Origin: SAR202 cluster bacterium bin87
GTDB taxonomy: Bacteria > Chloroflexota > Dehalococcoidia > Lucifugimonadales > UBA3495
Length of the DNA: 64,000 nucleotides
NCBI GenBank assembly: GCA_002238825.1
Contig: MPNC01000017.1
Span: 4,324 to 68,323 of the forward strand
Direction: 5' to 3'
Shown: piece after piece, positions 18,541 through 43,145 of the stretch
Numbering within the stretch: the stretch's first letter is position 1
How the letters are laid out: every line of letters begins with the position of its first letter
The notes under the pieces: generated by a model
Told to the model about the DNA's origin: nothing
Seen by the model: only the letters and a program-made list of their open reading frames with translations
Databases searched by the model: none
Made by a program: the position numbers and the translations under genes

Positions 18541-18563
18541 CGACCGGTCTAAACGACGGCTCG

Positions 18564-26072: not shown

Positions 26073-26073
26073 T

Positions 26074-26110
26074 CGGGTCGATTCCGGTATGGGCAGGATC
26101 GTACGCTAGG
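26074..26110 (+). repeat. Tn3-family terminal inverted repeat (left)
   Basis: cGGGTCGATTCCGGTATGGGCAGGATCGTACGCTAGG. Confidence 0.8.
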
Positions 26111-26685
26111 GGGAGTGATGCCGGTTGAGTGTGCGATAGACGGTTGGTCTTGAGACGGAGAAGAGCTCGGCGAGGTCGCTGATGGAATACTCGCCGATGG
26201 CGTGCATGCGGCAGAGTTCCCGCTGCCGTCGATCGGACAACTTGGGCTGCTTGCCGCGCAACTTCCCCCGAGCGCGCGGGCGATGGCCATGCCCTCGCGG
26301 GTGCGCATGCGGATGAGATCGGCCTCGAACTCGGCGAAGGCGGCGAGGATATTGAAGAACATCTTTCCCATGGGATCGTCCGGGTCGTAGAGCGCCCGGC
26401 CCAGGGCCAGTTTCACGCCGCGTTCCCGCAGCCGGTCGGCGATGGCGCGCGCATCCGGGACAGACCTGGCCAGGCGGTCGAGTTTGGGCACGATCAGGGT
26501 GTCGCCGGAGCGCACGGCGGCGAGGGCCTGGTCGAGGCCGGGTCGGGCGCGGTTCTGCCGGTGAGGCCGTGATCAGTGTAGATGCGATCCTCGGCGACGC
26601 CGAGTTCCAGGAGGGCCTGGCGCTGGGCAGCCAGATCCTGCCGGTCGGTGGAACAGCGGGCGTATCCGATGAGGGTTGCGGTCAT
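26106..26685 (-). pseudogene. serine recombinase (resolvase) with at least two frameshifts
   Basis: Frame 1 reads MTATLIGYARCSTDRQDLAAQRQALLELGVAEDRIYTDHGLTG. Frame 2 reads NRARPGLDQALAAVRSGDTLIVPKLDRLARSVPDAR...FAEFEADLIRMRTREGMAIARA. Frame 3 reads RGKLRGKQPKLSDRRQRELCRMHAIGEYSISDLAELFSVSRPTVYRTLNRHHSP*. Confidence 0.85.
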
Positions 26686-26880
26686 GGGGGAAGTACACGA
26701 ATAGGGTCCCGCATCCGCAATAATTACCGTACTATTCATATGAGACGCTCCTGGTGCCGGTCTGGCGGAGGTCGGAGCGACGGTCTGGGCCGTACGCTGG
26801 ACGTTCCCCTTACGGACAGCGCCGCGCATGGCGGGATGAACGAATAACGGAGCGCAACTGGTGGCCGGACATCCTGCGGG

Positions 26881-27345
26881 TTGCTGCCACCCCTGACCAG
26901 CGGCGCCCAGCCTCCCAGCCAGCTGCTGCGAAAGTTCGCGGCCTATCCGCGCCAGCACGAACTGGCCGTCACTCTCCGCGAAATCGGACGGGTCGAACGC
27001 ACCCTCTTCATCGTCGACTGGATGCTCGACGCCGATATGCAGCGTCGAGCCAACACCGGCCTGAACAAGGGCGAGGCTCATCACGCGCTCAAGAACGCCC
27101 TCCACATCGCGCGCCAGGGCGAAATCCGCGACCGCTCCAGCGAGGGCCAGCATTACCGCATGCCCGGGCTCAACCTGCTCGCCGCCATCGTCGTTTACTG
27201 GAACACCGCCCACCTCGGCGGAGCGGTTGGACAGCGGAAACACGCCGGGCCGACCGTCGAGCCCGAGCTCCTGGCCCACATCTCACCCCTGGGATGGGCC
27301 CGCATCCTGCTGACCGGCGAATACCGGTGGCCAAAGCGCCGATAG
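26881..27345 (+). pseudogene. C-terminal stub of a Tn3-family transposase
   Basis: YPRQHELAVTLREIGRVERTLFIVDWMLDADMQRRANTGLNKGEAHHALKNALHIARQGEIRDRS...LNLLAAIVVYWNT...ISPLGWARILLTGEYRW matches the conserved TnpA C-terminus. About 850 upstream codons are missing. Confidence 0.8.
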
Positions 27346-27349
27346 CGAC

Positions 27350-27387
27350 CTTAGCGTACGATTCTGCCCCCTACCGGAATCGACCCC
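27350..27387 (-). repeat. Tn3-family terminal inverted repeat (right)
   Basis: The reverse complement reads GGGGTCGATTCCGGTAGGGGGCAGAATCGTACGCTAAG. Confidence 0.85.
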
Positions 27388-27629
27388 TTCCTGCGGTAGT
27401 TGAGCACCCTGAGCCCCAGCGGGAGTAGAGCTGGTTACCTCCGACGCTCACTAGGGGCTGAAAATGCCATCGCCGCGGTGTTCGCTGGGGCCAACTAGCA
27501 GCGCTGCCGCACCCACCTCATGATCAAACTCTGCTCGCGTTGGGGGGACGGTCGGCACCACCGGTCGCTCAGCGTCAGTAGTTCGCAGATTTCTACCGAA
27601 AGTCTGACAACAGATGACATTTCTCCCGC

Positions 27630-27920
27630 TTATAGACCCCAAGCATCTTTGAGGATGAGGTACTCTTGTTGATAGCCATGCGTCCGCAGATGTTCCAAGT
27701 AAACCTCTCGTGGGGGTATGTTACTGTAGTATGGGACCGAGCCCCTGGAAAGCCCTCCGCCAGTTCCCCTGGAAAGCCCTCCGCCAGTTCCCCTGGAAAG
27801 CCCTCCGCCAGTTCCCCTGGAAAGCCCTCCGCCAGTTCCCCTGGAAAGCCCCCCGCCAGGGCTCTTGTTCAGTCCCCCACCAGTTCCCGTGGAACTATTC
27901 CGTGACCATCCTTTTGACAT
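27630..27920 (-). CDS. small protein with GGGLSRGT tandem repeats
   Basis: 96-aa ORF. It has five 8-residue Gly-rich repeats followed by VPYYSNIPPREVYLEHLRTHGYQQEYLILKDAWGL. Confidence 0.45.
   Translation of the reverse strand: MSKGWSRNSSTGTGGGLNKSPGGGLSRGTGGGLSRGTGGGLSRGTGGGLSRGTGGGLSRGSVPYYSNIPPREVYLEHLRTHGYQQEYLILKDAWGL
27742..27861. repeat. 5 x 24-bp tandem repeat (4 perfect, 1 degenerate)
   Basis: CCCCTGGAAAGCCCTCCGCCAGTT at 27742, 27766, 27790 and 27814, with a degenerate copy at 27838. Confidence 0.9.
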
Positions 27921-28167: not shown

Positions 28168-29703
28168 TCAGACCAAGCGTCCTACCCTGTCGAACGGTAC
28201 CTCGGCAATGCTCCGGTAGATATCGACCACTTCGTCATTGAATTCAAACCGATTGGCGAGCGTGTCCACAACCACTTGGACTATCAGGGACGCGCATCCT
28301 ATCACCGAAGCGGGCGGAGCGTTGTTGACCGGGGCCGAGCACCCCAGTGCGGGCGTCGCGAAGTCGTTACGTCCATCACCTCCGGGGATAACAGGATATT
28401 TGGCGCCTTCCTCCCTGAGGTGGATCGGAGTATCCCCTGCCAACACTTGACGCTGCACCCGTGCCACACTGCCCCCACGGTAAAGCGCACCGGATACCAG
28501 TGGCTTTCTCCATTTCTCGGCGACCATGGCCAACGCAGGTACGAATGCATCGTTGCCAGTAGCGTCGATCACGATATCCGCGCTCGAGATGAGTTCACAT
28601 ATCCTACCGGGAGTCATCGGAGCTTCCGGAAACTCGCCAACCTCGGTCCAGGGAGCGTGCTTTTCAATCACGTGATGGACAGCTTGCACCTTGGGCTTGC
28701 CCACCTGGTCATGGCCCGCGACGTGTCTGACCACGTTCTCGGGTAAAAGTACGTCGCCGTCCACGATGTCCAAGTGGCCGAGCCCGCTTTCCGCGAGCGT
28801 GGTCCCAACGTAACCTCCCAGAGCGCCGGCCCCGAACATAGTTGCCCTGATGGTCCGCAGCACCGGCGCGTCAGGGCCCGCGCGCGCGATCAGGTTGTTT
28901 TCATCGGTTGGTCCTGGCTGCAATGCGATCGCCTCCACATCATTATTCATTCCTGCACACGCCATCACCAGCGCGTCTTTCGCTTCGTACCGCTCCCAAC
29001 AGAATAGGATGAAATCCACTCCGCCGCTGGATACGAACGGTTCAGGCCTACGCCGGTCGTCCAATTGGCGCCTTAGCGGTTTGGCTTGGGCCCGGGATAG
29101 GCACCGGAACACTTCCGAAAGCTGACGGGGCGGCGGGGTGGTCAATCGGCTCGGGTGGAACCAGAGGCCGCGCAGATGATTCGACGACCTGGCGCGCCCC
29201 GGACCCACATCGATCCTTGGTGGAGCCCGGTTCACAACACCATGCAGATCTCCCCAACCGCCTCTGTGGATGCCGAGCTCATCACGGTCGAAGGTTACAA
29301 CGATGGGCAGTTTCCTCTGAAAGTTCAGGAAAGCGTCATATCCCAAGTCATCGCCTTCCCAGCCATGCTCTGCACTCTCGCACCATTCCTCAATACGCGA
29401 GAAAAATCCCTCTGCAGTCTCCCAATCGCGGCTGGAATCTCCGTCCTGCCACATACAGACAAACCCACCAAGCGTGGAGTGGTTGGTGTCAAGGCCATCG
29501 ACGAACAGGGCCGGAGGCCGAAATGGCCATCCTTCCACGATCATGATATCCATGGTCGTTGCCGCGGTCAGGGGCGCAAACGCCTCATGGATCGGGCCGC
29601 GCCAGCGCGATTGATTCACAGCCGATACCGGAGCGAAGCCGGCCGCCTTCAGATCGCACTCGAACGCTTCTAACGACTCCATGTGGAAATGGTCGTCCGT
29701 CAT
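28168..29703 (-). CDS. cap2: CBASS Cap2-like E2/E1 fusion protein
   Basis: 511-aa ORF. The N-terminal E2-like region has HSTLGGFVCMWQDGD. The C-terminal ThiF/E1 adenylation domain has MFGAGALGGYVGTTLAESGLGHLDIVDGDVLLPENVVRH. Its start is 5 nt after the CD-NTase stop. Confidence 0.8.
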   Translation of the reverse strand: MTDDHFHMESLEAFECDLKAAGFAPVSAVNQSRWRGPIHEAFAPLTAATTMDIMIVEGWPFRPPALFVDGLDTNHSTLGGFVCMWQDGDSSRDWETAEGFFSRIEEWCESAEHGWEGDDLGYDAFLNFQRKLPIVVTFDRDELGIHRGGWGDLHGVVNRAPPRIDVGPGRARSSNHLRGLWFHPSRLTTPPPRQLSEVFRCLSRAQAKPLRRQLDDRRRPEPFVSSGGVDFILFCWERYEAKDALVMACAGMNNDVEAIALQPGPTDENNLIARAGPDAPVLRTIRATMFGAGALGGYVGTTLAESGLGHLDIVDGDVLLPENVVRHVAGHDQVGKPKVQAVHHVIEKHAPWTEVGEFPEAPMTPGRICELISSADIVIDATGNDAFVPALAMVAEKWRKPLVSGALYRGGSVARVQRQVLAGDTPIHLREEGAKYPVIPGGDGRNDFATPALGCSAPVNNAPPASVIGCASLIVQVVVDTLANRFEFNDEVVDIYRSIAEVPFDRVGRLV

Positions 29704-29708: not shown

Positions 29709-30743
29709 TTATCCGAACCTGCGCGCCTCATTCGGCCGCTGGGCTACCGGTGTGGAACCAGCACCAGCTGCGGCGGTGCGGGCGCTACGCCCCGAGCCTT
29801 GGCCAGCACGGTTTCCGCTCCCGACCGCGTTGGATCCTCCACCACCAGAACTCCCGCCTTTGCCGAAGCTATCGCCGAACAGTTCCTGCCAGATCTTGAT
29901 GGCCTTCTCAGCCGAAGGCTCAGCTTTCGCTCGCTTCGCGGTTCCCGCGTAAGACTGGACTCGGTTCCTGAAGTTGGCGTATTTACGCTGGTCCCAGTGC
30001 CGGTTGAAGTTCTCCGTCGGCAGCACCGGATTCTTGATCTCCGGCATATTGGGGTGCTGCTGCAGGTAGTTGTCCATCCGGGACAGGACGGTCTCCAGCG
30101 TGTCGGCCACCGTGCTCACCGCCGCGGTTCCTTTATCGGACGCCTTGATAGTGTTGCCGGCCAGGGTGGTCAGGAGAATCGACTTGGCGGTAAAGCTGTT
30201 CTTGTGGTCCCGAAGGTGCTTGAGCAACCTGACCACTCGCTTCAGATTGCCACCGGTGATGCGATTCTTTTCGTTGAACCAGTCGCGGTATCCGGTACCG
30301 TCAGTTTCTTCGAATTTGTTGTCAACCCGGTTGCAGACGTAGTGCTTACCACCGCTGGTCACCCGGGGTACTGTGTCGAGGTGAAAATCGCCGGCGTAGT
30401 CGACGGTCACGCACCTGGTCTTGAGCCTGAGCTTGTCGACGTAGTTCTTGTTACCAGCCAGCGTCTTGTTAATCGCGTGGACGTAGTCTTTGGCTTCCCA
30501 CTTGGGGTTCGGGTTCATCACGATCTGGATGTCGGCATCATACTCATCGTTGTCGTCCACCGGCTTGATGAGTGTACCCAGGGCATAGGACCCCTGCTTG
30601 TCCATTGTTTGGTACCCAGGCAGGTTGTCCTTGAGATAGTCGTTCACCGCGCCCACGGATGTTTCCAGTCGGTCCAGCCGGCTCTGATTTAGGTTCACCT
30701 CATCCCTGAGAAACTCGGCGAACTGCTGAATATTCTTGGTCAA
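29709..30743 (-). CDS. CD-NTase (SMODS-type cGAS/DncV-like nucleotidyltransferase) with a long Gly-terminated tail
   Basis: 344-aa ORF with a TTG start after AAGGAG. It has QGSYALGTLIKP...EYDADIQIV and DFHLDTVPR (GS / DxD / third-Asp pattern). About 50 residues of G/S/A-rich tail end in ...EARRFG*. Confidence 0.8.
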   Translation of the reverse strand: MTKNIQQFAEFLRDEVNLNQSRLDRLETSVGAVNDYLKDNLPGYQTMDKQGSYALGTLIKPVDDNDEYDADIQIVMNPNPKWEAKDYVHAINKTLAGNKNYVDKLRLKTRCVTVDYAGDFHLDTVPRVTSGGKHYVCNRVDNKFEETDGTGYRDWFNEKNRITGGNLKRVVRLLKHLRDHKNSFTAKSILLTTLAGNTIKASDKGTAAVSTVADTLETVLSRMDNYLQQHPNMPEIKNPVLPTENFNRHWDQRKYANFRNRVQSYAGTAKRAKAEPSAEKAIKIWQELFGDSFGKGGSSGGGGSNAVGSGNRAGQGSGRSARTAAAGAGSTPVAQRPNEARRFG

Positions 30744-30761: not shown

Positions 30762-31793
30762 TTATGCCAACGCCGTGAATGGCGCCGAAATGTGAGTTAA
30801 AAACGCCGCCGAAATCCGGTCGGCGTACTGCTCCGCGACGGCGCATGCTTCATCCGGCAGCAACCGTCTGGCCTTCTCCCAATCGTCCAGATCGACGCGC
30901 TCGGCTCCTTCCAGTCGATCCAGACGCGTAACCTTGTCGCGACCGATCAGCAGCCCAGCCTGATTGACCGCGGTGAGGGACTGGTAGTGCATGGCCACGT
31001 AGATGATCTCACGCCATTGAAACTGCCCGGCTCCGGCCGCCTGCTTGCTGCCAATCCGAAAACCGTCCTGTCCGCACCCGATGCTCAGGATCGCGATGTT
31101 CTCCCGTTGTACCGTGAAGCAGGTCAGAGCTTCGACCAAACCCATCATGGTCGGATTGTTAGCCCAGATGCCCCCGTCCAGGAGGATGTACCCATCTTGA
31201 ACCACCGGCTTCAGGTAGGTAGGAGCTGCCGAAGTCGCGGCCGCCACCTCGGCCATGGGCTTGTCGCCGTCCAGGAAATACCCGGGATGGTGGGGAGTCT
31301 TATACACCGCGGGGTCTCCATGCTTGGCCTCGGTCGCCGGTATCAGCAACCGATATCTGGATTCCCGAAGGGTTATCTCCCCCAGAGTCTCACGAAGCAG
31401 TTCATCCAGGGCGGCCCGATCGTATCGATTGCGCGACAACCGACTCAGTAATCGCTGACCGCTCGCACGTTGCTCCGGAGGAAACACACGGTGGCCCTCG
31501 TTGACGTACAGATCCAGCAGAGAGCGCGCCGTCAGTCCAGCGCCCAACCCCAGGGCTATGATCCCACCGGTCGAGGTGCCGGCAATCAGGTCGAAGTAGT
31601 CGCCGATTGGCTGACCGTCAAGGCAGTTCTCCTCCAGATAGGCCAGGATCGCCACCGGGAAAATGCCCTTGATGCCGCCGCCATCAATCGACAGGATCCT
31701 GAATGTGGCGTCGTCGGGCCAAGGCAATGGTTCCCGACGGGTCTGCAGGATCGTAGCCGACCTGCGTGCTGGTTTATCGCGCTCTGCATTCAT
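30762..31793 (-). CDS. capV: patatin-like phospholipase effector
   Basis: 343-aa ORF with ILSIDGGGIKG, the nucleophile motif AGTSTGG, and DGGIWANNP. Confidence 0.85.
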   Translation of the reverse strand: MNAERDKPARRSATILQTRREPLPWPDDATFRILSIDGGGIKGIFPVAILAYLEENCLDGQPIGDYFDLIAGTSTGGIIALGLGAGLTARSLLDLYVNEGHRVFPPEQRASGQRLLSRLSRNRYDRAALDELLRETLGEITLRESRYRLLIPATEAKHGDPAVYKTPHHPGYFLDGDKPMAEVAAATSAAPTYLKPVVQDGYILLDGGIWANNPTMMGLVEALTCFTVQRENIAILSIGCGQDGFRIGSKQAAGAGQFQWREIIYVAMHYQSLTAVNQAGLLIGRDKVTRLDRLEGAERVDLDDWEKARRLLPDEACAVAEQYADRISAAFLTHISAPFTALA

Positions 31794-31860: not shown

Positions 31861-32598
31861 TTACTTCAATCCCAGCGACCGTTCCTCAGGCCTGTCCGTC
31901 AGGTATCCCAACTGCGCCAGCCTCACCCTCGCCGCATCATTCGAGACTTCAAACTGGCCCGCTATCCTGGCGATGAGATCTGCCCCTTTGACAGACGCGG
32001 TTGGAACTGACCCAAAAGTACCCCATGCGTCAAAGGTCATCTGGACCAACCGTCCGAGTCGCGTGACCGGCATCAGGATGGCTCCCGATACGTACCCGGC
32101 CTGCCACTCCATCCAATCGACGCCGGATCCCCCGCTGTCTCCCGGCCTTTTACACCTGGGCCCGGGCGCTTCCTCCTCATCCGGGAAAAGCCTGGGCTGA
32201 TCGAATGGCCACAACCTCGCGTGCAACTTCACGTGGCCGAACTCGTGGGTGAGGGTCGTCCGCAACCGGTGTTCCCGGTGGCTTGCATCGGCCAGCTCCT
32301 GGGAGATTTTCACCACGGGTTTCTGGTCAGGATAAAACAGGGTCAGCCCCTGTACCTCCTCACCCTCCTCGCCTTCCTCACTGAGGTCGGCGTACTGGTC
32401 CAAGTCGGACGTATCACATTCGATCATGACGGTCAGGTCCTGAGTCGACACCGGGAACTCAGCCTTCCCGTACGTCTCCAGCAGGAAGCCAACGATCCAT
32501 TCCTCGCTCAGGCTATCCAGCTCCTCCTGACGATAATAAGGCCGCTCCGGAAAGCGGCCCGTCCGATCTTTGATCCATCTGATCGAGTTAGCGCTCAT
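31861..32598 (-). CDS. capP: ImmA/IrrE-family Zn metallopeptidase (CapP-like)
   Basis: 245-aa ORF with the HExxH motif (LTHEFGHVKLH). Its ATG overlaps the stop of the HTH gene (ATGA). Confidence 0.75.
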   Translation of the reverse strand: MSANSIRWIKDRTGRFPERPYYRQEELDSLSEEWIVGFLLETYGKAEFPVSTQDLTVMIECDTSDLDQYADLSEEGEEGEEVQGLTLFYPDQKPVVKISQELADASHREHRLRTTLTHEFGHVKLHARLWPFDQPRLFPDEEEAPGPRCKRPGDSGGSGVDWMEWQAGYVSGAILMPVTRLGRLVQMTFDAWGTFGSVPTASVKGADLIARIAGQFEVSNDAARVRLAQLGYLTDRPEERSLGLK

Positions 32599-32912
32599 CG
32601 GCTCCGGCCACTCAGGTTGCGCCGGAAGGCCTTCATGGCAGTTGTGATGCCTTCCCGGTCACGCGACATCTCGAGCATATCCGAGGGGAACCTCCCCGCC
32701 AGAAAGAGCAGATAGTCCAAGTCCAAGTCCAAGGTATCCGCCAACTGGCGAACGATATGTTCGCTGGGAGGATTGCGCCGGTCATGCTCAATATCGTTCA
32801 GATATTGAGCCGAGATGGCCTGGCCGTCCTCCTTCAAGGTTTCGGCCGCTACCTGCTTCTGGCTCAGTTTTCTGTCCTTGCGGGCCTGTGTGATTGCTTC
32901 TCCGAATGTCAT
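32595..32912 (-). CDS. capH: XRE-family HTH regulator (CapH-like)
   Basis: 105-aa ORF with LSQKQVAAETLKEDGQAISAQYLNDIEHDRRNPP. It is paired with the metallopeptidase directly upstream of CBASS. Confidence 0.75.
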   Translation of the reverse strand: MTFGEAITQARKDRKLSQKQVAAETLKEDGQAISAQYLNDIEHDRRNPPSEHIVRQLADTLDLDLDYLLFLAGRFPSDMLEMSRDREGITTAMKAFRRNLSGRSR

Positions 32913-33209: not shown

Positions 33210-36170
33210 TTATCGGGAGCTGTCCCCGAACAGTTCCTGCCAGAGTTTGACGGCCTCCTCAGCCGAGGGCTTGGCTTTCGCCTGCTGCGCCGTCTGTGCG
33301 TACGATTGGATCCGGTCCCTGAAATTGGCGTACCTCCGCTGGTCCCAGTACCGGTTGAAGTTCTCCGTAGGCAGCACCGGATTCTTGATCTCCGGCAAAT
33401 TGGGATGCTGTTGCAGGTAATCGTTCATCCGGGAGAGGACGGTCTCCAGCGTGTCGGCCACCGTGCTCACCGCCGCGGTTCCTTTATCAGACTCCCGAAT
33501 CATGTTGCCGGAGAGAGTCGTCAACATGATCGACTTGGCGGTGAAACTGCTCTTGTGGTCCCGGAGGTATTTGAGCAGTCTGACCACTCGCTTCAGGTTG
33601 CCGCCTGTGATGAGATCCTTTTCATTGAACCAGTCGCGGTACCTATTACCGTCCGTCTCCTCGAACTTGTTGTCGATCCGGTTGCAGACGTAATGCTTAC
33701 CTTCGATGGTCACCCGAGGAACCACATCCAGGTGAAAGTCGCCGGCGTAAGCGACCGTTACGCACCTGGTCTTGAGCCGGAGCTTATCGGCATACGTCTT
33801 GTTGCCAGCCAAGGTACGGTTGATCGCGAGGACATAGTCCTTCGGTTCCCACTTAGGATGCAGGTCCATCACGATTTGGATATCGGCATCATACTCATCG
33901 CCGCCGTCCACCGGCTTGATGAGCGTATCCAGGGCGTAAGAGCCCTGCCTCTCCATCTTCTGGTATCCGGTCAGGTTGTCTTTAAGGTAGCCGTTCACCG
34001 CTCCCACGGCAGTTCCCAATCGGTCCAGACGGCTCTGGTTGAGATTCACTTCGTTCTGCAGTTTCCTGGACGTCAACTCGGCACTACTAGTTGCCTCCCT
34101 CAACAGCATATCGAAGCTGATCCCAGCCAAATCGCGCCGAACATCTTTCGCAACCGCATGCACTTCCTTGGCGACGTGCGTCTCCTGGCCTTGCTCTTGC
34201 TGCAGAGCGGTAATCAAGGGCAGCAGCAAACCTGCCGCCGGTGATGCCTGTATGAGTTCCAGAGCGCGGGCCACACCGAATATCACAGACAATTGTGTCA
34301 ATGCCTGGATGAAACCCGGGCGGAGTTCGCCCTCTTTGGCCAAACAGCCCAGCAACAAAGAGAAATCGTTCTCAGTAAGGTTTTTCCCTTGGAGGAGGAG
34401 GGCAGCCGCCTTGGACAACAGTGCGCTGGTCACTTTCCCAACCATGCTCTTCGCATTATCAGAGGCGAACCTCTCCACGACTGCGTCAAAAACGACCGCC
34501 GCTTCGCTTGGGTTTTGGTTCTGCATCAGAGCCAACCCCTTACGATGCATCGTGTCAGCTACCAGTTCGCTGAGTTCAGTGGTTGGCACGGTGGCCAAAC
34601 AGTCCAAAGCTTGGTCATACGCGTAAACAGCTTCAGATGCATTCCCGAGTTGAGACCACGCCCTTCCTTTGCTATCCAACGCTGTTCCGAGCATGACGAC
34701 CACCGCAGGGTCTCTGCTCGTTCCAAAGGTGACCAGCATTTGGTCGCACGCGCCGATGCCCTCAAGATACCGGCCCGCCCAGTTCAACCGCAGGACCTTG
34801 TTCAACAAAGCCACAGCCGCCTGGTGCCGATCACCTGTCACCTGGGACATCCGCAACCTATCTGCAACCTGCTCAAAGATGGCGACGGCTTCATTATCAT
34901 GACCAATATCGGCCAAGAGTTGCGCTTTTTGGATCAACACCTGGGCTACCGGCTCTTGAACGTCAGCCGTTTCAAGGCGGGATTCCCGGTAGATGTCCGC
35001 GACAATATCCCACAGATCTGCCGGTGAATAGAGGCAAGCCATGAAGTCTATAAGCGCTTCAACCACCTGACTGGACCCGCTGTCCCTTCGCAACAGATAG
35101 TAGATGTTGTAAAGCCGCTCGCTCAGGTAGTACTGCCGGCGCCGAGGCGTTCCCCCGACGACGACTACAGCCCCCCGTTCCATTAAGCGCGCCAACAAGG
35201 CGCTGCACTTGTTGATATCGAGACGAGACTGATCGGCAACCTCTCTGGCGGTAGCAGGTTTCCATAACCTGGCCAAGGAGAGATAAACCCGGCGCTCCAG
35301 TGCCGGCAACGATTCCAGGTGGCTCTTGAAATACTCCGTGTGGTCGTCAACCAGGTCCAGCAGATTGCTTTTTAGTTCACCGAACGACCGGCCGACGCCA
35401 AAAAGAGCGATGATAGTAAGCAATCTGGGATTGCCTCCGGTGAGGATCTCCAGGGGCCTGACCGCCAGGGTTGTGGACGGTTGTCCGCTGACAGCCTCCC
35501 ACAGGGCCACGCATTCTGGTGTATCCAGGGGATGTAGTGTGATTACCCGAAACAGATCGTATAGCGCATGATCGGGATGGTCGATTTCGTCGAACCGGCT
35601 GGTGGCGCTGCCCAGCAGGACAATGCGAGGCTCCGTCTGCAGGGTGTGGCGCAACCGCCATCCCGCGTCAGGATCATCCATGTCGGCGAACAGCATATTC
35701 AGGTTTTCCACCACCAACACGACCCGTTTCCCGTGGCGGTCCGCGAAATCCAGAACCGACCCCAGGCAGCGGTCGGCCAGGTCCCGGTCATTCCCGGTGG
35801 TCCTGAGGTCATCATAGGACAGGCGCAAATCGGCGCGCTCGTCGTCCGGAGCCTGCTCCACCAAACGGCCCACGCACTCCAACCAGAATTCCCCAATGGT
35901 GGAGATCTCGTAACTCTCCTCCGCGAACACGATGGGGTAGAATCCCTCCAGCGCGCCATCCCGGCGCGCCTCAGCCGCCACGCGTAGCAGCAAGTGGGTT
36001 TTTCCGCTGCCTCGCGGTCCGATCACCAATGCGTGGGCGTTGGATTGGCCGGTACTCGCGCGCAGGCATTCCAAGAGCGACTCGAACTCGCCGGTGCGCA
36101 CGCAGAACGACGCTACGATCTCATCGTCGGTGAGGAAGCCAGGGTTGTATTTCTTGACGCCGACTGCCAT
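33210..36170 (-). CDS. fusion protein: STAND/ORC-like P-loop ATPase + wHTH + TPR-like repeats + C-terminal CD-NTase (SMODS) domain
   Basis: The ORF is open to 36242. The likely start MAVGVKKYNPGF at 36170 is preceded by GGGGGA. It has Walker A VIGPRGSGKTHLLL and Walker B-like RVVLVVENLN. The last 280 aa are colinear with, and very similar to, the 29709-30743 CD-NTase (QGSYALDT...EYDADIQIV...DFHLDVVPR). Confidence 0.8.
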   Translation of the reverse strand: MAVGVKKYNPGFLTDDEIVASFCVRTGEFESLLECLRASTGQSNAHALVIGPRGSGKTHLLLRVAAEARRDGALEGFYPIVFAEESYEISTIGEFWLECVGRLVEQAPDDERADLRLSYDDLRTTGNDRDLADRCLGSVLDFADRHGKRVVLVVENLNMLFADMDDPDAGWRLRHTLQTEPRIVLLGSATSRFDEIDHPDHALYDLFRVITLHPLDTPECVALWEAVSGQPSTTLAVRPLEILTGGNPRLLTIIALFGVGRSFGELKSNLLDLVDDHTEYFKSHLESLPALERRVYLSLARLWKPATAREVADQSRLDINKCSALLARLMERGAVVVVGGTPRRRQYYLSERLYNIYYLLRRDSGSSQVVEALIDFMACLYSPADLWDIVADIYRESRLETADVQEPVAQVLIQKAQLLADIGHDNEAVAIFEQVADRLRMSQVTGDRHQAAVALLNKVLRLNWAGRYLEGIGACDQMLVTFGTSRDPAVVVMLGTALDSKGRAWSQLGNASEAVYAYDQALDCLATVPTTELSELVADTMHRKGLALMQNQNPSEAAVVFDAVVERFASDNAKSMVGKVTSALLSKAAALLLQGKNLTENDFSLLLGCLAKEGELRPGFIQALTQLSVIFGVARALELIQASPAAGLLLPLITALQQEQGQETHVAKEVHAVAKDVRRDLAGISFDMLLREATSSAELTSRKLQNEVNLNQSRLDRLGTAVGAVNGYLKDNLTGYQKMERQGSYALDTLIKPVDGGDEYDADIQIVMDLHPKWEPKDYVLAINRTLAGNKTYADKLRLKTRCVTVAYAGDFHLDVVPRVTIEGKHYVCNRIDNKFEETDGNRYRDWFNEKDLITGGNLKRVVRLLKYLRDHKSSFTAKSIMLTTLSGNMIRESDKGTAAVSTVADTLETVLSRMNDYLQQHPNLPEIKNPVLPTENFNRYWDQRRYANFRDRIQSYAQTAQQAKAKPSAEEAVKLWQELFGDSSR

Positions 36171-36190
36171 TGCGGTCCCCCATTCCTGAT

Positions 36191-37471
36191 CTATCGCCGG
36201 TTGATCGGGGTGAAGTATTGACCGTGCCGGGCGCGCCACCAATCCTCCAGCAGGCCGGACACGAAGCCGTAACCTCCGTCCTGGCCCTCCAGGTACCCGT
36301 CATGCTCCAGCGAATAAAGCACATGCTCGACGGGCACTCCTTCGTCATCTGAAGAGAGCGGCGACGACTCCCGGTAGCGCCGCGCGGTTTCGTGAGTCAG
36401 CAGACCGCCGTTGACCGCGGCTTCAGTCAAAAGGCCGAGAGCCACCGTATAGCTCTGGCCCCCCAGGACAGTTCGCAGACGGTCCTCGTAATGCACCAGG
36501 TCAACCTGTCCCCGCACGCTGAGCAGTTCGTGTTCGTACACCTGCGCCACGTCGGCCATGGTCGCCTCGCTCCTCTGATCCCTGACCAGGCGTTCGTGGA
36601 GGTGATGGAAAAACTGCTGGACGTGATGCGGAACGCAACAGCGCAACCGGCGACACATCTCGCCGCGCACCTCTTCGGAGAGATGTATCCCCTGCCCACG
36701 GGCCAATGCAGCCAGGCAGTCAATCGATATCTCCCGACTCCAAGGCTGCAAGTCGAAGGGCGCAAAAACGTTGGCCTGAGCGCTGAGGCCTGCCTGCCTG
36801 AGAATGGGGCCCAACCCGACGCTCCCTGAGATGATCAAGCAGACCCTGCCGGGATACGCCTGGCAATTTCGCCTCAGCCAGCTCATGAACCGGTCCGTGG
36901 CTGCGCGGCGCTCCGGAGTGATGCGGTAATCATGCCCCTTCAGCAGACGGTTTACTAGGATGGAAAGCTCGTCAATGGCCAGCACCACCGGCCGTTCGTT
37001 GGCTGCCAGAGCTTCAAAGAACCGGTCGCCATCACGCTGCCAGTTTCCGGCGTCCATTCCGGCGCGTAACCGCACCTTCAGCTCGGATACTCCCACCTCC
37101 TCCACATTGTCGCGGATGTCCCCCAGGCGGTTGGTGGACCACGTCTGGATACGCCTCCAGATGCTCTGGACCGATTGAGCCTGGATCGCCATCTCGGCGA
37201 CGGCATCAGCCCCGTCCATGGCGGCTTCCAGGTCCACGAACACGGTGGCAAACTGCCCCTCGTCATCCAATCGCCGCAGCAGTTCCCGCACCAGGCTGGT
37301 CTTGCCCATGCGACGCTGCGCGGTCAGGAGCGTGTGCGTGCCGTTTTCCACACGCTCCCGCAGCGCTTCGATCTCGGCCTCTCGATCAAAGAAACGGTCG
37401 CCGTAGACCCAGTTACTGCCGCCTGGGACGAGTTCCAGTTCGCCATCCGGTTGGGTAAAGTTGCTTGCCAT
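36191..37471 (-). CDS. archaeal-ATPase/ORC-like P-loop ATPase
   Basis: Internal start MASNFTQPDG at 37471. It has FFDREAEIEALRERV...AQRRMGKTSLVRELL (Walker A) and VVLAIDELSIL (Walker B). It ends 20 nt before the fusion gene start. Confidence 0.7.
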   Translation of the reverse strand: MASNFTQPDGELELVPGGSNWVYGDRFFDREAEIEALRERVENGTHTLLTAQRRMGKTSLVRELLRRLDDEGQFATVFVDLEAAMDGADAVAEMAIQAQSVQSIWRRIQTWSTNRLGDIRDNVEEVGVSELKVRLRAGMDAGNWQRDGDRFFEALAANERPVVLAIDELSILVNRLLKGHDYRITPERRAATDRFMSWLRRNCQAYPGRVCLIISGSVGLGPILRQAGLSAQANVFAPFDLQPWSREISIDCLAALARGQGIHLSEEVRGEMCRRLRCCVPHHVQQFFHHLHERLVRDQRSEATMADVAQVYEHELLSVRGQVDLVHYEDRLRTVLGGQSYTVALGLLTEAAVNGGLLTHETARRYRESSPLSSDDEGVPVEHVLYSLEHDGYLEGQDGGYGFVSGLLEDWWRARHGQYFTPINRR

Positions 37472-37533
37472 TGATAGATCGTAACACGCAACATATACGT
37501 TGGCAACAAACACGTTGGCAACAGCACCGGTTG

Positions 37534-37890
37534 TTTGCCGAACTGCGGCTGGCCGGCGCAACCACCCTGGAGCGGGCTCGGGCGGTGCTCGATGAGTTTG
37601 TGCCTCGGTTCAACCGGCGCTTCGGCGTTCCCCCGCAGCGCTCCGAGCCAGCGTTCCGACCGCTGGACCAGCAGTTGTGCCTAGAGCAGGTGCTGTGTTT
37701 CCAGCACCGCCGGAAGGTGGACCGGGACAACACGGTGCGGTTCCAGTTGCAGACACTCCAACTGCTGCCGGCGCCGGAACGCCCCAGCTATGCCGGGGCG
37801 ACGGCGGAAGTCCTGGAGGGGCTGGATGCTCAGCTCAAGGTACGCCACGCGGGACGCATCGTCGCTGCCCAGGAGGCCCCGCCAGGTCCG
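37534..37890 (+). pseudogene. C-terminal fragment of a DDE transposase (IS481/ISNCY-like)
   Basis: AELRLAGATTLERARAVLDEFVPRFNRRFGVPP...RKVDRDNTVRFQLQTLQL...AEVLEGLDAQLKVRHAGRIV. There is no catalytic N-terminal part. A separate HTH-like scrap (RERWKAIQQARRKGMSLRAIE) follows at about 38090-38160. Confidence 0.5.
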
Positions 37891-38195
37891 GTATCCCTCC
37901 GTAACGGCCACCAGCCTCCCGCCGTCTCTCCGGTTGCGCCCATCGGGGTAAACCACTGGGATGAACGCTGGACAGCGCACCTGGCTCCGCTGGTCTCAAG
38001 TCAGGAACCCGAGGCGGATCAACCGGACTTCACCGATGGTGAAGTCGCCGCCGCACCACCCGCAACCGTCGCCCCGCGCCAGCCGACCTTCCTGCAGCGG
38101 GAGCGCTGGAAGGCGATCCAGCAAGCCCGGCGCAAGGGCATGTCGCTGCGGGCCATCGAACCAAAGAATACATGCGCCGCCGAACCGGGGAGGGA

Positions 38196-38297
38196 ATGAG
38201 CAAACTCGAAGTCATGCGTTGCCTCAAACGTTACGTTGCCCGCGAGATCTTCTCTACCTTGCAGACTCCCGCAGGATTCGTCAGCAGCCCGGCTTGA
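38196..38297 (+). pseudogene. C-terminal scrap of an IS110-family transposase
   Basis: MSKLEVMRCLKRYVAREIFSTLQ matches the conserved IS110-family tail (..RCLKRYVAREVY..). Confidence 0.5.
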
Positions 38298-38604: not shown

Positions 38605-41600
38605 TTATTCCACACCCTCTTCGGAGGCCATCGTCAGCCAAAATTCGATATGAGGTTCGGTGAAAAACAAGCTTACGTGGGAATCCAGTTGGGGAGGTTT
38701 GACATTGACCAATCTGCCCGGCACGTCCCGAACTTTCCCGTCCGTCGATGCGAAAGCTATGATCCGGTCCGTCATATCGACAAACGAACGGAGAATCTCT
38801 GACCGAGTGATTGCGTCGCCAAAGTGCATATGATGATATCGGCATAGCAAAAGAATATTGCCCGCGTGGCGCGCGCCCCTTGCGTTTACGTGGTCGCAGT
38901 GATGGGCATGCATTACCTCCTGCCGATTTTGTGGTATCGACACGTAGCTCGATCCCGGGGCCAGCACCGAGGGCGCCCACGTGGCCAGGCAAATTTGGCA
39001 ATGCCAAGCGTACTGCACCTCCTTTAAGTTGGCTATTTGGGCATCTTCGGTCGGTATCCGGCTCCGACTAGGGGTTGCCGGCGGCCTGATCCTAGTCTTG
39101 CTGTTCGCACCAGAACCCCCAGGGATCGGTCCGGGACTAGGGATGTTTTTTGATCCGTCAATGATTTGAGCGGGGTGCACACCAGCGGTCTCGACGAGAT
39201 CTCCGTCGTCGTGCGCATGGTCAGAGGCTTCGTACGCTTCGTAATCGGTTTCCGACGCTGACTCGTCCACGCCGTAGTTGGGGTTGCGCTCCTTGAAGTC
39301 CAGTTTGTACGCGCGCTGCAGCACCGGGCCCAGATACTTTTGCGGCGTCTCGAAAATACGCTCGGCGACTAGGTCGAAGAAATTCTCTTCCAGATCCGAG
39401 TCTGACCTCAGATAAAGTGTTCCGTTTTCTGGGTCGATTTGGCCGCTTTCTTCTACCTCAAAGTTTCGACGGAATAGCCGGTAGGTGACAAAGACCGAGT
39501 CCGCGAGTTGGACCTTCTTGACGACCGACAAGCGTTCGCGCCAATTTCTCCTTAGTTTGTCCCGCCGGTCGTCCAGTCCCAGGTTATCCAGCCGCTTCCT
39601 TAATTGCTGCCCTTTCGCACCAGTTTGCAAAGACAAGATCACTCGACCAAATGCGTGATTTGGATCGTGGGCATCGAGGCCATCGGCCACCACCCGGGTC
39701 GGCTCTCCCGCTGCGTCCCTCAGCGTACGCAATCCCAGGGCACGCAATTCAGAAGTGATTGGTTCTGTGACTTTCTGACTTTCCACTATGGCGAGGCCAA
39801 CCGGTCGGTCGCTTGCATACAGCCTGATGCGTTTCTCAAGAGGCTCATGATCAGGGATCGCGATTCGAGCTCGGTTTTGGGTCGCTTCCGATTTCGTGAC
39901 CAGGCGCACCAGGTTCGTGTCGCATTCCACAGGGATAAAGGCAATCTCGGGGTTGCCGGCGGACCACGACCTAGGTCCATTCCCGTGTTTAATGTGGCGA
40001 AGGATTTGGTCGACGTGTTCGGCGATCACGTCCGAACTCTGGCATTGAAGCCAATGGAAGAAACGAAGAGAGTCGGTTTCCGTCGGCTCTCCGCCCACGA
40101 CGCCAATCTTTCGATAAAGTCGTTGAGTCTCAGCGTTGATGTCCGATAATTTGACCACCGTTTTCCACAGGCCCCAATAATCCCTTCTACCCTTCAAAGC
40201 CAACTGGGATGGTGAGAACAATTCACCCTCTACTGGTATGCACGGTAAATTCTGTATACCGGTCGGTGCCGTGCCTTCGCTTTCCGATTGCTTTACGTAT
40301 TCTCGGATTCTCGGAGCGTAAGAGTCGATGCGACCGCCGTCCTCCCGCAACGCATCAGCGATTTGCGTGGCCGTTGGGGTCTCTCTGGGCGCCCAGCCTT
40401 CGACGCGATCCAAAAGCTTTTTTGGACGGTTAATTTTGTGCCTTTCGAGGAGGTACAATCGAGACACCCAGCCTTCGGATCTCAACAATTCTGCCGGCGA
40501 TCTCAGCATCAGGTCTCCGCCTAATGCAACTGCGTACCGAGCGGCTAATTTGGCAAGGCTATCCTTCAATTCAGATACCGACGCGAGGGCCGCAAGGTCA
40601 TCTTCGAACGACAAGAACTGGTGCACTTCATCGGAAGTGAGTTGGCGATCTTTCGGGAACTCAACGGCCCGGTTCGACAAAAAGGCTCTGACTTCATGGA
40701 TGTTGGGAATGCGGCGGACGCTGAACTTGCCTCTCCCGTTCCTGGTTGCCATATCCGCAGTATAAATTTCTCGAGACGGCCTATTGATGTGCGCGCGCAA
40801 AATCGAGGAGACGCGGGAGTCCTTTGGTTCGCATAACGCCGGGAACGCAACCAAATCACCCGTTGTGGTCGGCCAGATAGGCAAGGTTAAGATGCGGTAG
40901 CGGACCGGGGAGGAGAGGGATGCCCAACTGCCGCGCAACCAACGCCAAAACTGCTTGCGGTAGTTCAATGAGGTTTCGTGAAAATCAGTTTCATCAAGAA
41001 AATCATCCAGGGTGTATTGTCGCGGCTTCCACCCACGGCTTTGCAGCAACGGATGATTCTGCAGTGAGGGGTGCAATATCGGTACTTGACGACGGCCCGG
41101 TAGGGAAGGCGGCAAAACCGTCGCAATGAACAAATCGGCGAGGGGTCGCGGCTCTGACTTGGCATCAGGCAGATGCAAATTAGGTTTGATGGAACTTGCA
41201 TTCCGCGATTTATCGTTTTGAATAGTTTCTTTCAAGACGTCCAAATTCCGCTTGGCAACCTCGGGATCCCCGAGGGTTTTTTTCCATTCGGCTTCGCTCG
41301 CCCATGGGAACCACCTTGCGGTTTGCAGCGGTTGCATGCGTTGTACGGCATCATTCTCATCGAAAGTAAAGATCAAGCCATCCGAATCAATGTCGGCTAA
41401 ACAGCGCAACACGGGTGCAGGAATCGACTCACTCACTTGGTCTTCGTTCTTTGGACAAATATTGGAGAGGAGGCCGGAAAACTCCGAATCGCTCCACGTA
41501 AAAGTTGGCAGGATTATCCTCCTGCTGCCGCCCGCAGAAACCCGTCTAGGACCCAAGGGAACCATCGGTCCCGATTTGGCTCGGCGTCGGACCTTCGGCG

Positions 41601-42852
41601 ATGATATTTTGGTACCGGCATTCTGGGTTTGGCCGCGGAGCGGGATAGCCCGCTTGTTCAGGGACCGCCGAACGATGTCTGGTAACCATTCGCTGTCTGG
41701 ATTGCCGTTGACCAAGTACAGTTCCAGGGCCTTGCCGCCGTGGCGTGGGATTAGATATCCCGCCATGATGTCCACCAAGGAGTCGCGACAGGATTCGTCG
41801 ATGCATGAATTGAACCGGTCCCGGTCGCTGATTCCATGCCTTCCCGCATCCGACCTGTACGGTCCCGAGAAGTGGACGCCCAGTCCAGTGAGCGCTGTCG
41901 CGAAACCTTCGTCGTACCCTATAGGATATCGCCTCAGGCCCTTGGTCGATTGAGGCCGCCCTTTCTTGTCGATGCTCCAAGCGATTTCGATGCGAAAGTC
42001 TTTGACGCCTGGATCGAAAAAACCGGGGATCTCCGGACGCGTCCCGTCCAGGAAAAGAGCCCGCAGCGTACATACATGTTCGTGAACTGATCTGGACTCG
42101 GTGGTCGGCGAATGGGACTCTACTTCACATTCTCGCCGAAACAAGCTAAAGCTTTTTCTGTTCCTCCCAGTCCGATGGGTAGGTCGTTTTGCAGTCCAAC
42201 CGATGTCCACCACGCCCAGTTGGTGATGTCTCAAGGTCAGGCGGTATTGGTTCCTGACACCTGGGGAGACCGCTCCCATCAACCTCTCCGGAAGACCAGC
42301 GCACGCGTCGCGATAGAGGCCGCGCACCAAATCTGGGCTCGTCGGCCCAAGTTCGAACGTTTCTCCCATGGTGACCATCAATGTGTTTGAGCGGTATGGC
42401 ACTTCCACTGAACATCCAAAGAGCGGCGCTTCTAAATCTGGCACGGGCGCGCCATAGGCGCCGGGCGAAGGTTCGGCATCTTTGCCGTTGCGGTACAAAG
42501 TTTTTTGTAAACGGACGCCATCGGAACGGATTATGATGTCGTCGCCTAGGCCGAAGCATGCGTTCAGACCATGATTTTTCACCCCGATGCCCGACCTTTT
42601 CGCTTCGACGTCTTCCCCAGCACCAAATAAGGTAGCCAGCCGTTCCCAACCCTTTTCCGAGACGGGCTCTCCGTCGCCTTGACAAATCAGTCGATCAGGA
42701 AGAAACGAAATGCTGGTATGGCTAGCGTTGGCGTCCAACTCATTCTGGATCAGCTCAATGATCAGGTCGTCGAGATTGAGGCCTCTGAAAAACTGCCAAT
42801 AAACAGGGATAACATCGACCTTCTGCTCGTATTCGACGGTTGACATGGTCAC
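38605..42852 (-). CDS. giant GHKL (sacsin/HSP90-like) ATPase protein with a C-terminal HNH-like nuclease motif
   Basis: 1415-aa ORF with visibly lower GC. The N-terminus has LIIELIQNELDANASH (Bergerat N-box), QGDGEPV, and SGIGVKNHGLNACFGLGD. The C-terminus has WHCQICL...MHAHHCDHV...AGNILLLCRYHHMHFG. Confidence 0.75.
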   Translation of the reverse strand: MTMSTVEYEQKVDVIPVYWQFFRGLNLDDLIIELIQNELDANASHTSISFLPDRLICQGDGEPVSEKGWERLATLFGAGEDVEAKRSGIGVKNHGLNACFGLGDDIIIRSDGVRLQKTLYRNGKDAEPSPGAYGAPVPDLEAPLFGCSVEVPYRSNTLMVTMGETFELGPTSPDLVRGLYRDACAGLPERLMGAVSPGVRNQYRLTLRHHQLGVVDIGWTAKRPTHRTGRNRKSFSLFRRECEVESHSPTTESRSVHEHVCTLRALFLDGTRPEIPGFFDPGVKDFRIEIAWSIDKKGRPQSTKGLRRYPIGYDEGFATALTGLGVHFSGPYRSDAGRHGISDRDRFNSCIDESCRDSLVDIMAGYLIPRHGGKALELYLVNGNPDSEWLPDIVRRSLNKRAIPLRGQTQNAGTKISSPKVRRRAKSGPMVPLGPRRVSAGGSRRIILPTFTWSDSEFSGLLSNICPKNEDQVSESIPAPVLRCLADIDSDGLIFTFDENDAVQRMQPLQTARWFPWASEAEWKKTLGDPEVAKRNLDVLKETIQNDKSRNASSIKPNLHLPDAKSEPRPLADLFIATVLPPSLPGRRQVPILHPSLQNHPLLQSRGWKPRQYTLDDFLDETDFHETSLNYRKQFWRWLRGSWASLSSPVRYRILTLPIWPTTTGDLVAFPALCEPKDSRVSSILRAHINRPSREIYTADMATRNGRGKFSVRRIPNIHEVRAFLSNRAVEFPKDRQLTSDEVHQFLSFEDDLAALASVSELKDSLAKLAARYAVALGGDLMLRSPAELLRSEGWVSRLYLLERHKINRPKKLLDRVEGWAPRETPTATQIADALREDGGRIDSYAPRIREYVKQSESEGTAPTGIQNLPCIPVEGELFSPSQLALKGRRDYWGLWKTVVKLSDINAETQRLYRKIGVVGGEPTETDSLRFFHWLQCQSSDVIAEHVDQILRHIKHGNGPRSWSAGNPEIAFIPVECDTNLVRLVTKSEATQNRARIAIPDHEPLEKRIRLYASDRPVGLAIVESQKVTEPITSELRALGLRTLRDAAGEPTRVVADGLDAHDPNHAFGRVILSLQTGAKGQQLRKRLDNLGLDDRRDKLRRNWRERLSVVKKVQLADSVFVTYRLFRRNFEVEESGQIDPENGTLYLRSDSDLEENFFDLVAERIFETPQKYLGPVLQRAYKLDFKERNPNYGVDESASETDYEAYEASDHAHDDGDLVETAGVHPAQIIDGSKNIPSPGPIPGGSGANSKTRIRPPATPSRSRIPTEDAQIANLKEVQYAWHCQICLATWAPSVLAPGSSYVSIPQNRQEVMHAHHCDHVNARGARHAGNILLLCRYHHMHFGDAITRSEILRSFVDMTDRIIAFASTDGKVRDVPGRLVNVKPPQLDSHVSLFFTEPHIEFWLTMASEEGVE

Positions 42853-43022
42853 TCCTTCATCGTCAGGTTATGGAGCATCTCATTCAGTGACACCGGGTCT
42901 AGAGCTGCAGCTCCATAGATGCACGATTCGGCCGAAGGCCCGCCTGGGGGCACTATCATGGAAAAGCGCGCCAAGGGGCGCATTTTACTGGTTGGCACTC
43001 GTCGTGGACAAACGAGCAGCTA

Positions 43023-43145
43023 CGGGTCGATTCCGGTAGAGGGCAGGATCGTACGCTATGGGGAAAGGCGCTGGTTGAGTGTGCGATAGACGGGTCCCCT
43101 TACGGATACCGCCGCGCCTGCCCGTATGAACGGATGACGGAGAGG
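43023..43145 (+). repeat. third (solo) copy of the Tn3-type IR plus about 85 bp of internally deleted element sequence
   Basis: cGGGTCGATTCCGGTAGAGGGCAGGATCGTACGCTATG is followed by GGTTGAGTGTGCGATAGACGG (as at 26122-26142). Then comes CCCCTTACGGA.A.CGCCGCGC......GA.GAACG.AT.ACGGAG (as at about 26806-26850). Confidence 0.75.

Follow-up and report, generated by a model that had tools for sequence, protein, structure and literature searches.

A CD-NTase domain fused to an ATPase–TPR protein beside a type II CBASS operon in a SAR202 bacterium: a candidate NLR-like infection sensor

We analyzed a 64,000-nucleotide stretch of DNA from SAR202 cluster bacterium bin87 (GenBank assembly GCA_002238825.1, contig MPNC01000017.1, positions 4,324–68,323; hereafter the window), in which a gene on the minus strand (33210–36170) encodes a 986-residue protein that joins a P-loop NTPase, a helical lid, a winged helix, and an array of tetratricopeptide repeat (TPR)-like hairpins to a C-terminal cGAS/DncV-like nucleotidyltransferase (CD-NTase) domain. 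A gene for a second ATPase lies directly upstream, and an operon of the type II cyclic oligonucleotide-based antiphage signaling system (CBASS) follows downstream. Sequence comparisons suggest, with a probability that we put at roughly 55%, that the fusion protein and its obligate partner ATPase form an infection sensor akin to the nucleotide-binding leucine-rich repeat (NLR) receptors, which would be wired into the adjacent CBASS. The proposed coupling of ligand sensing to the synthesis of a messenger that feeds the patatin effector is supported by comparative evidence.

Counted from a TTG codon, the open reading frame (ORF) of the fusion gene covers 33210–36242 of the minus strand and 1010 residues. 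Since all homologues open with MAVG(I/V)KKYNPGF, the start was placed at the ATG at 36170, which gives the product of 986 residues. Pfam positions are given here in the 1010-residue numbering and motif positions in the 986-residue numbering. Pfam searches of the fusion protein returned AAA_16 (residues 46–187, E = 3e-11), ORC-CDC6-like (3.6e-7, above its cut-off), a TrmB winged helix (residues 315–368, 3e-6), weak TPR matches (residues 430–592), SMODS (residues 728–875, 1e-24), and a DncV-like NTFase (2.4e-10), and nSTAND_NTPase5 fell below its cut-off (9e-4). The C-terminus matched the PADLOC oligonucleotide cyclase profile PDLC00793 at 3e-101, and the fused cyclase domain matched the CD-NTase 9sa4 in the Protein Data Bank (PDB) at 7.6e-14. 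Together with AlphaFold2 (AF2) modeling and Foldseek searches, these matches delimited a P-loop NTPase core (residues 1–215, positions 35526–36170; Walker A GPRGSGKT, Walker B VVLVVEN), a helical lid (216–289) with a winged-helix domain (290–361; both at 35088–35525), a variable TPR-like array (approximately 362–660) with a family-conserved C-terminal helix (668–694, ...HVAKEVHAVAKDVRRDL...; both at 34089–35087), and the CD-NTase (SMODS) domain (706–986, positions 33213–34055).

Conservation of the active sites was counted in 43 fused homologues. The Walker A lysine K57, the Walker B glutamate E155, the GS motif (G743/S744), and D811 were kept in all 43 proteins, and D761 and D763 each in 42. 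The original prediction, which was made from the letters of the window and its ORFs, had described an N-terminal P-loop NTPase, a winged-helix segment, TPR-like repeats, and a complete nucleotidyltransferase domain of ~280 residues with GS, DxD, and third-Asp motifs, and each of these elements was recovered by profile, model, or both. It had also placed a second P-loop ATPase gene 20 nucleotides upstream on the same strand and a CBASS operon with a patatin effector ~1.4 kb away, in agreement with an upstream ORF that ends at 36191 and a capV gene that begins 1417 nucleotides downstream of the fusion stop. As to the objection that resequencing might expose an artefact, the same 986-residue protein, in the same gene order, was found on 15 contigs of independent ENA and JGI assemblies built from short and long reads, and the fusion is therefore not a product of misassembly or of a frameshift.

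The structure of the N-terminal part was modeled with AF2 for residues 1–705, from an alignment of 134 sequences that reached down to 35% identity; this model (pLDDT 88.4, pTM 0.83) replaced a full-length model that had served for a first Foldseek pass. From the N-terminus on, it consisted of a P-loop core of five strands, followed by a helical lid, a winged helix (helices at 290–331, hairpin strands at 335–349), ~13 helical hairpins, and a long terminal helix, with a pLDDT of 88–98 in the TPR array. Foldseek searches against the PDB placed archaeal Orc1/Cdc6 at the top (2qby_A, 1e-7; also 2v1u_A), level with a Pyrococcus TPR protein of the STAND (signal transduction ATPases with numerous domains) class (6mfv_A, 1.3e-7, 745 aligned columns), and returned as further matches SAMD9, ORC4, CED-4, NLRP7, Apaf-1, the plant NRC and ZAR1 resistosomes, Avs4, and MalT. 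For the repeat array, TPR proteins were matched in addition to 6mfv. Some distant relatives of the family have NACHT or nSTAND Pfam matches. The model supports a predicted switch of the ORC/STAND type joined to a putative TPR sensor, and is compatible with a placement either among STAND proteins proper or among AAA+ proteins of the ORC/Cdc6 type. The earlier label 'STAND-like' is thus a fair one, given the resemblance to 6mfv, CED-4, Apaf-1, NRC, Avs4, and MalT, but Orc1/Cdc6 is resembled equally.

Downstream of the fusion gene and on the same strand, the CBASS genes are arranged in the order capH–capP–capV–cdn–cap2. They encode a CapH-like XRE-family helix-turn-helix regulator of 105 residues (32595–32912; HTH_19 8.8e-10, PADLOC capH 7.5e-7), a CapP-like M78/ImmA-type metallopeptidase of 245 residues with an HEFGH motif (31861–32598; Peptidase_M78 7.6e-4, PADLOC capP 1.1e-8), the patatin-like phospholipase effector CapV of 343 residues (30762–31793; Patatin 3.8e-30, PADLOC phospholipase effector 6e-105), a stand-alone CD-NTase of 344 residues (29709–30743; SMODS 3.1e-29, PADLOC cyclase 1.8e-113), and the E2–E1 fusion Cap2 of 511 residues (28168–29703; ThiF 4.3e-22, PADLOC E1-E2 3.5e-165). 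The locus thus contains the E1/E2 protein that is the criterion of type II CBASS, and a gene for a nucleotide-activated effector is linked to the fusion at a distance of 1.4 kb. The capH-like gene is kept beside fused loci. As for the isopeptidase Cap3, there was no minus-strand ORF of at least 100 residues between cap2 (28168) and a resolvase remnant (27279), and no JAB-domain match after cap2 in any related locus.

The partner ATPase, which we call ATP1, is a protein of 426 residues encoded on the minus strand at 36191–37471; its gene starts with an ATG at 37471 and ends exactly 20 nucleotides before the ATG of the fusion gene. It is of the ATPase_2/AAA_16 type (ATPase_2 1.6e-7, just under the Pfam cut-off; AAA_16 3.5e-7), with Walker A RRMGKT and Walker B LAIDEL, and its relatives in the PDB (2qen and 2fna) are weak. 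We compiled 169 related loci from GTDB genomes, JGI metagenomes, and individual look-ups, and in 163 of them ATP1 stood directly upstream of the ATPase–TPR gene, even where the ATPase–TPR protein was only 35–45% identical. The ATP1 family had 2621 matches, for which the NCBI name is 'AAA family ATPase'. Paralogy of the two ATPases was considered and was not detectable, as BLASTP aligned the P-loop region alone (E = 0.24). ATP1 also carries an invariant CRRLRCCVPHH motif. In the motif MCRRLRCCVPHH at residues 272–283, C273, C278, C279, H282, and H283 were invariant in 22 homologues, and this Cys/His motif may be a metal-binding site.

We compared the fused cyclase domain with the stand-alone cyclase of the window. 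BLASTP aligned residues 728–1005 of the fusion with residues 12–289 of the stand-alone enzyme without a gap, 228 of the 278 positions (82%) being identical, and in the DNA they appear as a pair of direct repeats with a spacing of 3351 nucleotides. The fused copy retains essentially the whole catalytic domain, and in many homologues the junction still holds ...AEFLRDEVNLNQ, from residue 8–9 of the stand-alone protein. Pairwise comparison of fused and stand-alone copies gave dN/dS values of 0.10–0.16 and dS values of 0.6–1.0, by which a recent duplication within the genome is ruled out; judged by these values, the divergence of the two copies is old and constrained.

In type II CBASS, a C-terminal tail of the cyclase that ends in glycine is the substrate of Cap2. 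The stand-alone cyclase of the window has such a Gly-rich tail, with the last residues ...RRFG, and the fused copy ends directly after LFGDSSR, without the tail. Among the 43 fused homologues, 13 end in -FG and six in -C. In a tree of the cyclase domains, the fused and stand-alone copies were intermixed at 69–94% identity. The two copies of a locus were each other's closest relatives in L009 (94%), L006 (89%), and L004 (88%), and between L004 and L005 dS was 0.04–0.15 in the NTPase–TPR part and 0.58 in the cyclase, which together indicate gene conversion between the copies. This pattern argues that the two cyclases probably make the same signal for the same effector.

The dN/dS ratios of the individual domains, obtained from fused-versus-fused comparisons, were 0.07–0.12 in the NTPase (0.17 in the most divergent pair, the window versus L167), 0.05–0.16 in the winged helix, 0.17–0.37 in the TPR region, which evolves about twice as fast, and 0.11–0.16 in the fused cyclase. 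By this measure, every domain of the fusion is under purifying selection. Sliding-window comparisons of family members gave identities anywhere between 18 and 90% in the TPR region, against a conserved NTPase and cyclase on either side. The window protein and an unfused relative (P0109) are 90–100% identical in the NTPase (residues 1–200) and 22–48% identical in the TPR region, and their ATP1 proteins are 95% identical. Likewise, two fused proteins (P0081 and P0083) match the window protein in the NTPase and the cyclase (72–94%) but have an unrelated TPR region (18–38%). Faster-evolving repeats that are exchanged on otherwise conserved modules are what a ligand-recognition domain would be expected to show.

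A search of 5.8 billion proteins recovered more than 80 clusters of full-length fusions, with lengths of 981–1026 residues, identities of 62–93%, and SMODS and AAA_16 in all of them, as well as relatives of ~700 residues without the cyclase. The carriers of the fusion are mostly metagenome-assembled genomes of Dehalococcoidia. When the cyclase domain was used as the query against 1.84 billion cluster representatives, the best 150 hits included just two with a C-terminal cyclase in a larger protein, namely the fused cluster P0041 and a fragment (P0403), and the other matches among these began at about residue 13–15. The fusion is thus confined to one 50%-identity cluster and, on the best 150 cyclase matches, appears to be a single lineage-restricted innovation.

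We examined the surroundings of the fusion gene in 15 distinct fused loci including the window, of which 14 could be evaluated, L008 being cut by the end of its contig. A full CBASS, capH–(capP)–capV–cdn–cap2, was present in 10 of the 14, directly downstream on the same strand in nine; in the tenth (L001), it was inverted behind a resolvase and its cdn was split by an insertion sequence (IS). Two loci were collapsed (L011, 9824–13833; L166, 9001–13616), in that a fusion with a full tail (...ARRFG) was followed directly by cap2 and capH, capP, and capV were gone, a form that is to be expected if the two cyclase repeats recombine with each other. The remaining loci (L007 and L164/165) showed no CBASS within 9–10 kb, with transposases after the gene in L164/165. 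None of capV, cap2, capH, and capP was found in ~150 unfused loci. Conservation of the fusion together with its ATPase neighbour in other genomes, which had been proposed as a check, is thus evident from the clusters, the pair tally, and the linkage to CBASS. The fused form was found in none of the 80 loci from a scan of JGI metagenomes, a weak negative, since that collection evidently lacks the JGI sample with the window's own locus.

On this evidence, the proposed sensor could operate as follows. The variable TPR array would bind a ligand derived from the infection, probably a phage protein, and the binding would free the ORC/STAND-type NTPase and winged-helix switch for NTP-dependent oligomerization, with ATP1 as a co-assembler or resetting factor. 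Assembly would switch on the C-terminal CD-NTase domains, whose cyclic nucleotide product would be identical to that of the stand-alone cyclase. The nucleotide would activate the CapV phospholipase, with damage to the membrane and abortive infection as the outcome. In this scheme, two inputs of the locus would converge on one effector, namely a stand-alone cyclase primed by Cap2 and a cyclase fused to a sensor.

Several observations weigh against this proposal. In the characterized Avs, bNACHT, and NLR receptors the output domain is N-terminal, whereas here it is C-terminal to the repeats, so that activation by induced proximity is no simple assumption. The full-length AF2 model (alignment of 43 sequences) was poor, with a pLDDT of 62 and a pTM of 0.38, and no contacts between the cyclase and the TPR array could be read from it. 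capV is absent nearby in four of the 14 fused loci (L007, L164/165, L011, and L166), where either the effector acts in trans or the loci are decaying. The host lineage consists of uncultured Dehalococcoidia. Finally, the usual company of the ATPase pair is restriction-modification-like genes, so its ancestral role may not have been the sensing of a protein ligand.

The last point concerns the family of the pair as a whole, which occurs in Chloroflexota, Acidobacteriota, Alphaproteobacteria, Binatia, Nitrospirales, Desulfobacterota, and other phyla, and whose members bear only the NCBI labels 'AAA family ATPase' or 'tetratricopeptide repeat protein'. The defense models of PADLOC 2.0 and NCBIfam 20.0 matched neither ATPase beyond the P-loop (mad8, E = 2e-4 to 3e-4; DS41_1, 0.004), and there is no NCBIfam family for ATP1. 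A link to MADS was rejected, as the mad8 matches (E about 1e-4) were at the level of the P-loop only. Searches with Pfam, PADLOC, and NCBIfam found no effector domain in the ~700-residue form of the ATPase–TPR protein or in ATP1. The genes that follow the pair vary and include type IIG restriction-modification enzymes (MmeI- or Eco57I-like), an OLD-family nuclease, a DUF7380/DUF4209 protein, and a conserved protein of 415 residues without database matches. The Hma system of L080 (HmaC 1.1e-96, HmaB 1e-65) has the pair between its hmaC and hmaB genes, and tblastn found this layout in at least eight further loci. The pair also stands immediately before type IIG enzymes (PDLC03627 1.7e-252), namely in L003, L017, and L107, and a type IIG enzyme follows the CBASS in L005 and L166. 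The embedding of the pair in Hma and its position upstream of type IIG enzymes are what one would expect of a portable module for sensing or regulation.

Longer members of the ATPase–TPR family carry more TPRs. In some members of ~1265 residues (L059:9932–13738, L061:9932–13732, L063:9923–13717), the C-terminal 550–850 residues had no Pfam match, and a conserved third gene of 415 residues after the pair, present in L046 (12111–13358), L047, L051, L055, and L057, had no Pfam or PADLOC match. These C-terminal regions and the third gene may be further output modules.

A broader proposal, which we make tentatively, is that the two-ATPase cassette could be an unrecognized portable two-component NLR-like sensor, comparable with a sensor/helper pair, that is plugged into at least three unrelated outputs, namely Hma, type IIG enzymes, and, by cyclase fusion, CBASS. 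In the CBASS form, a pattern-recognition module would directly switch on a CD-NTase.

The neighbours of the pair also favour the main rival explanation, which we consider rather doubtful. According to it, the pair is an accessory or regulatory module of restriction-modification-like systems such as Hma and type IIG enzymes, and the cyclase fusion is a tolerated, lineage-specific by-product of recombination, in which the cyclase is regulated like any CBASS cyclase (e.g. by Cap2 and another trigger) and not by the TPR/NTPase part. The recurrent Hma layout and the type IIG genes suggest that a CBASS block was inserted into an older locus of the pair plus restriction genes; the restriction of the fusion to a single 50%-identity cluster, and the -FG end kept by about a third of the fused proteins as in the stand-alone tail on which Cap2 acts, are also in line with this explanation. 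However, a tolerated accident would not hold dN/dS at 0.11–0.16 and the catalytic residues intact over more than 80 clusters. Direct repeats at a spacing of 3.35 kb are easily lost by deletion, as L011 and L166 illustrate, yet both cyclase copies are kept in most loci. Moreover, the occurrence of different TPR alleles with the same cyclase points to selection on the combination of sensor and output.

It is also conceivable, but unlikely, that the fused cyclase is held in check or sequestered by the ATPase–TPR part, or that this part serves as a guard or decoy, and that the signal fires when a phage factor or the depletion of ATP disables the ATPase complex rather than upon positive recognition of a ligand. 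The partner ATPase, being always present, could hold such a complex off, the cyclase is attached to the family's conserved C-terminal helix beside the sensor, and a precedent exists in type III CBASS, where a HORMA sensor that binds peptides or proteins and the AAA+ ATPase Trip13 control CdnC, Trip13 being a negative regulator. However, hypervariable, swappable TPR arrays are more typical of positive pattern recognition. Furthermore, ligand binding is what activates the STAND proteins among the Foldseek matches, for example Avs4, Apaf-1, and the NRC proteins. The remaining explanation, by which the fusion would be an artefact or else a chimera that is decaying or has no function, might draw on the IS-rich island (an ISNCY fragment in the window, the IS-disrupted cdn of L001), on the collapsed and CBASS-less variants, and on the -SSR end of the window's copy, but is largely refuted by the identical protein on 15 independent contigs, by more than 80 clusters of full-length homologues at 62–93% identity, and by purifying selection on all domains with the catalytic residues kept.

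With regard to known systems, the adjacent operon is a canonical type II CBASS with CapH and CapP, and the fused domain belongs to the same narrow clade of cyclases (69–94%). Unlike in type II CBASS as known, a second cyclase is carried here on a 700-residue NTPase–winged helix–TPR module with its own partner ATPase, the window's fused copy lacks the Gly-rich tail, and Cap3 was not found at the locus. The similarity to type III CBASS lies in the control of a CD-NTase by accessory proteins that include an AAA+ ATPase, with a binding module giving the infection signal. However, homologues of HORMA and Trip13 are missing here, the putative sensor and the cyclase form a single polypeptide, and the operon, with its Cap2, is of type II. 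In animal cGAS, the ligand is sensed via the nucleotidyltransferase fold itself. Like cGAS and the cGAS-like receptors (cGLRs), the fusion would combine ligand sensing and cyclic-nucleotide synthesis in one polypeptide that activates a separate effector, but the sensing would be done by a separate NTPase/TPR module.

The logic of the Avs, bNACHT, and NLR receptors of the STAND class, in which a P-loop NTPase with a lid and a winged helix is combined with a variable TPR sensor and an enzymatic output, is the same as that proposed here. Apart from the position of the output domain, the present system differs from them in three respects: a second ATPase gene is obligatory (163 of 169 loci), in contrast with the single-gene layout of Avs and bNACHT; the NTPase is best matched by AAA_16, ORC-CDC6-like, and ATPase_2, with nSTAND5 below its cut-off; and the output is a signal synthase that requires a separate effector. 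The closest concept is found in the bNACHT study (bioRxiv 10.1101/2022.07.19.500537), which lists SMODS among the nucleotide-signal effector domains fused to NACHT STAND proteins, that is, NLR-like proteins with a CD-NTase output. The NTPase family differs (NACHT versus AAA_16/ORC-like), and the available portion of that study leaves the fusions uncharacterized and without a link to a resident CBASS operon or a partner ATPase.

Full-text literature searches found no characterized ATPase–TPR–CD-NTase protein; an earlier bioinformatic mention is possible (Millman et al. 2020 and Burroughs et al. 2015 lay outside the search). The main text of a 2026 survey of STAND proteins does not mention cyclases. 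The statement in the original prediction that no characterized example is known therefore stands as far as these searches go, but the concept itself had already been catalogued as NACHT–SMODS fusions in the bNACHT study. Hma, as defined in the PADLOC paper (PMC8565338), consists of three genes, for the helicase HmaA, the methylase HmaB, and the ATPase HmaC, and the ATPase pair is outside that definition. The Hma and type IIG loci contain the same two-ATPase cassette as the window, but without a cyclase or CBASS, and there the ATPase–TPR protein stops at the conserved C-terminal helix. New here are a CBASS with a second cyclase fused to a receptor and a widespread, unnamed two-ATPase cassette. 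The original prediction had mentioned neither the wide occurrence of this cassette nor the close paralogy of the two cyclases.

What triggers CBASS cyclases during infection is still largely open in the field. At this locus, a cyclase is joined to a recognizable receptor with swappable TPRs, beside its own effector, and the compact set of seven genes lets the identity of the trigger, the mechanism of activation, and the match between signal and effector be probed. The unnamed ATPase pair, with thousands of homologues in several phyla, appears to be an add-on to different defense systems. The finding extends the parallel between bacterial NLR-like receptors and signaling of the cGAS type.

Some further features of the locus and its surroundings were recorded. 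Downstream of cap2, at 27718–27909, a 24-nucleotide unit (CCCCTGGAAAGCCCTCCGCCAGTT) occurs in approximately seven head-to-tail copies within a minus-strand ORF of 96 residues. ARAGORN reported a tRNA-Ala (cgc) on the minus strand at 29738–29811, within the region encoding the Gly/Ala-rich tail of the stand-alone cyclase, which is probably spurious. In a scan of 27.5–38.7 kb for promoters and terminators, promoter-like sites were no more numerous than in shuffled controls. The start of the ATP1 gene adjoins a plus-strand fragment (37465–38199) of an ISNCY-family transposase, which covers only the C-terminal third (NF033594, 1.3e-24). Beyond this fragment lies a minus-strand ORF of 1415 residues (38605–42852), whose N-terminus resembles the ATP-binding part of sacsin (NCBIfam NF047352, 2e-7) and whose C-terminus is rich in Cys and His; Pfam and PADLOC gave no match. 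As none of the 169 related loci yielded a counterpart in tblastn, this ORF was rejected as a component of the system, and it may be an uncharacterized defense gene in its own right.

A repeat of 50–100 nucleotides with the core GGCAGGATCGTACGCTA is present at 26092–26143 (plus strand), 27349–27394 (minus strand), and 43016–43142 (plus strand), three matches as against 0.12 expected. The copies bracket a split resolvase gene (25838–27279) and a 15.6-kb block in which the CBASS lies together with the sacsin-like gene and the two ATPase genes; a defense cassette that is mobile or can be inverted may use these copies as sites of recombination. In L001, a resolvase lies between the inverted CBASS and the ATPase pair. 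The same island of the window (12680–22123) contains a type I restriction-modification system with hsdM (15470–17299), hsdS (16966–18615), and hsdR (19352–22123), together with an ATPase with AAA_15/AAA_21 and DUF3696 (13669–15237) and an MIT_C/PLD-like protein (12680–13654).

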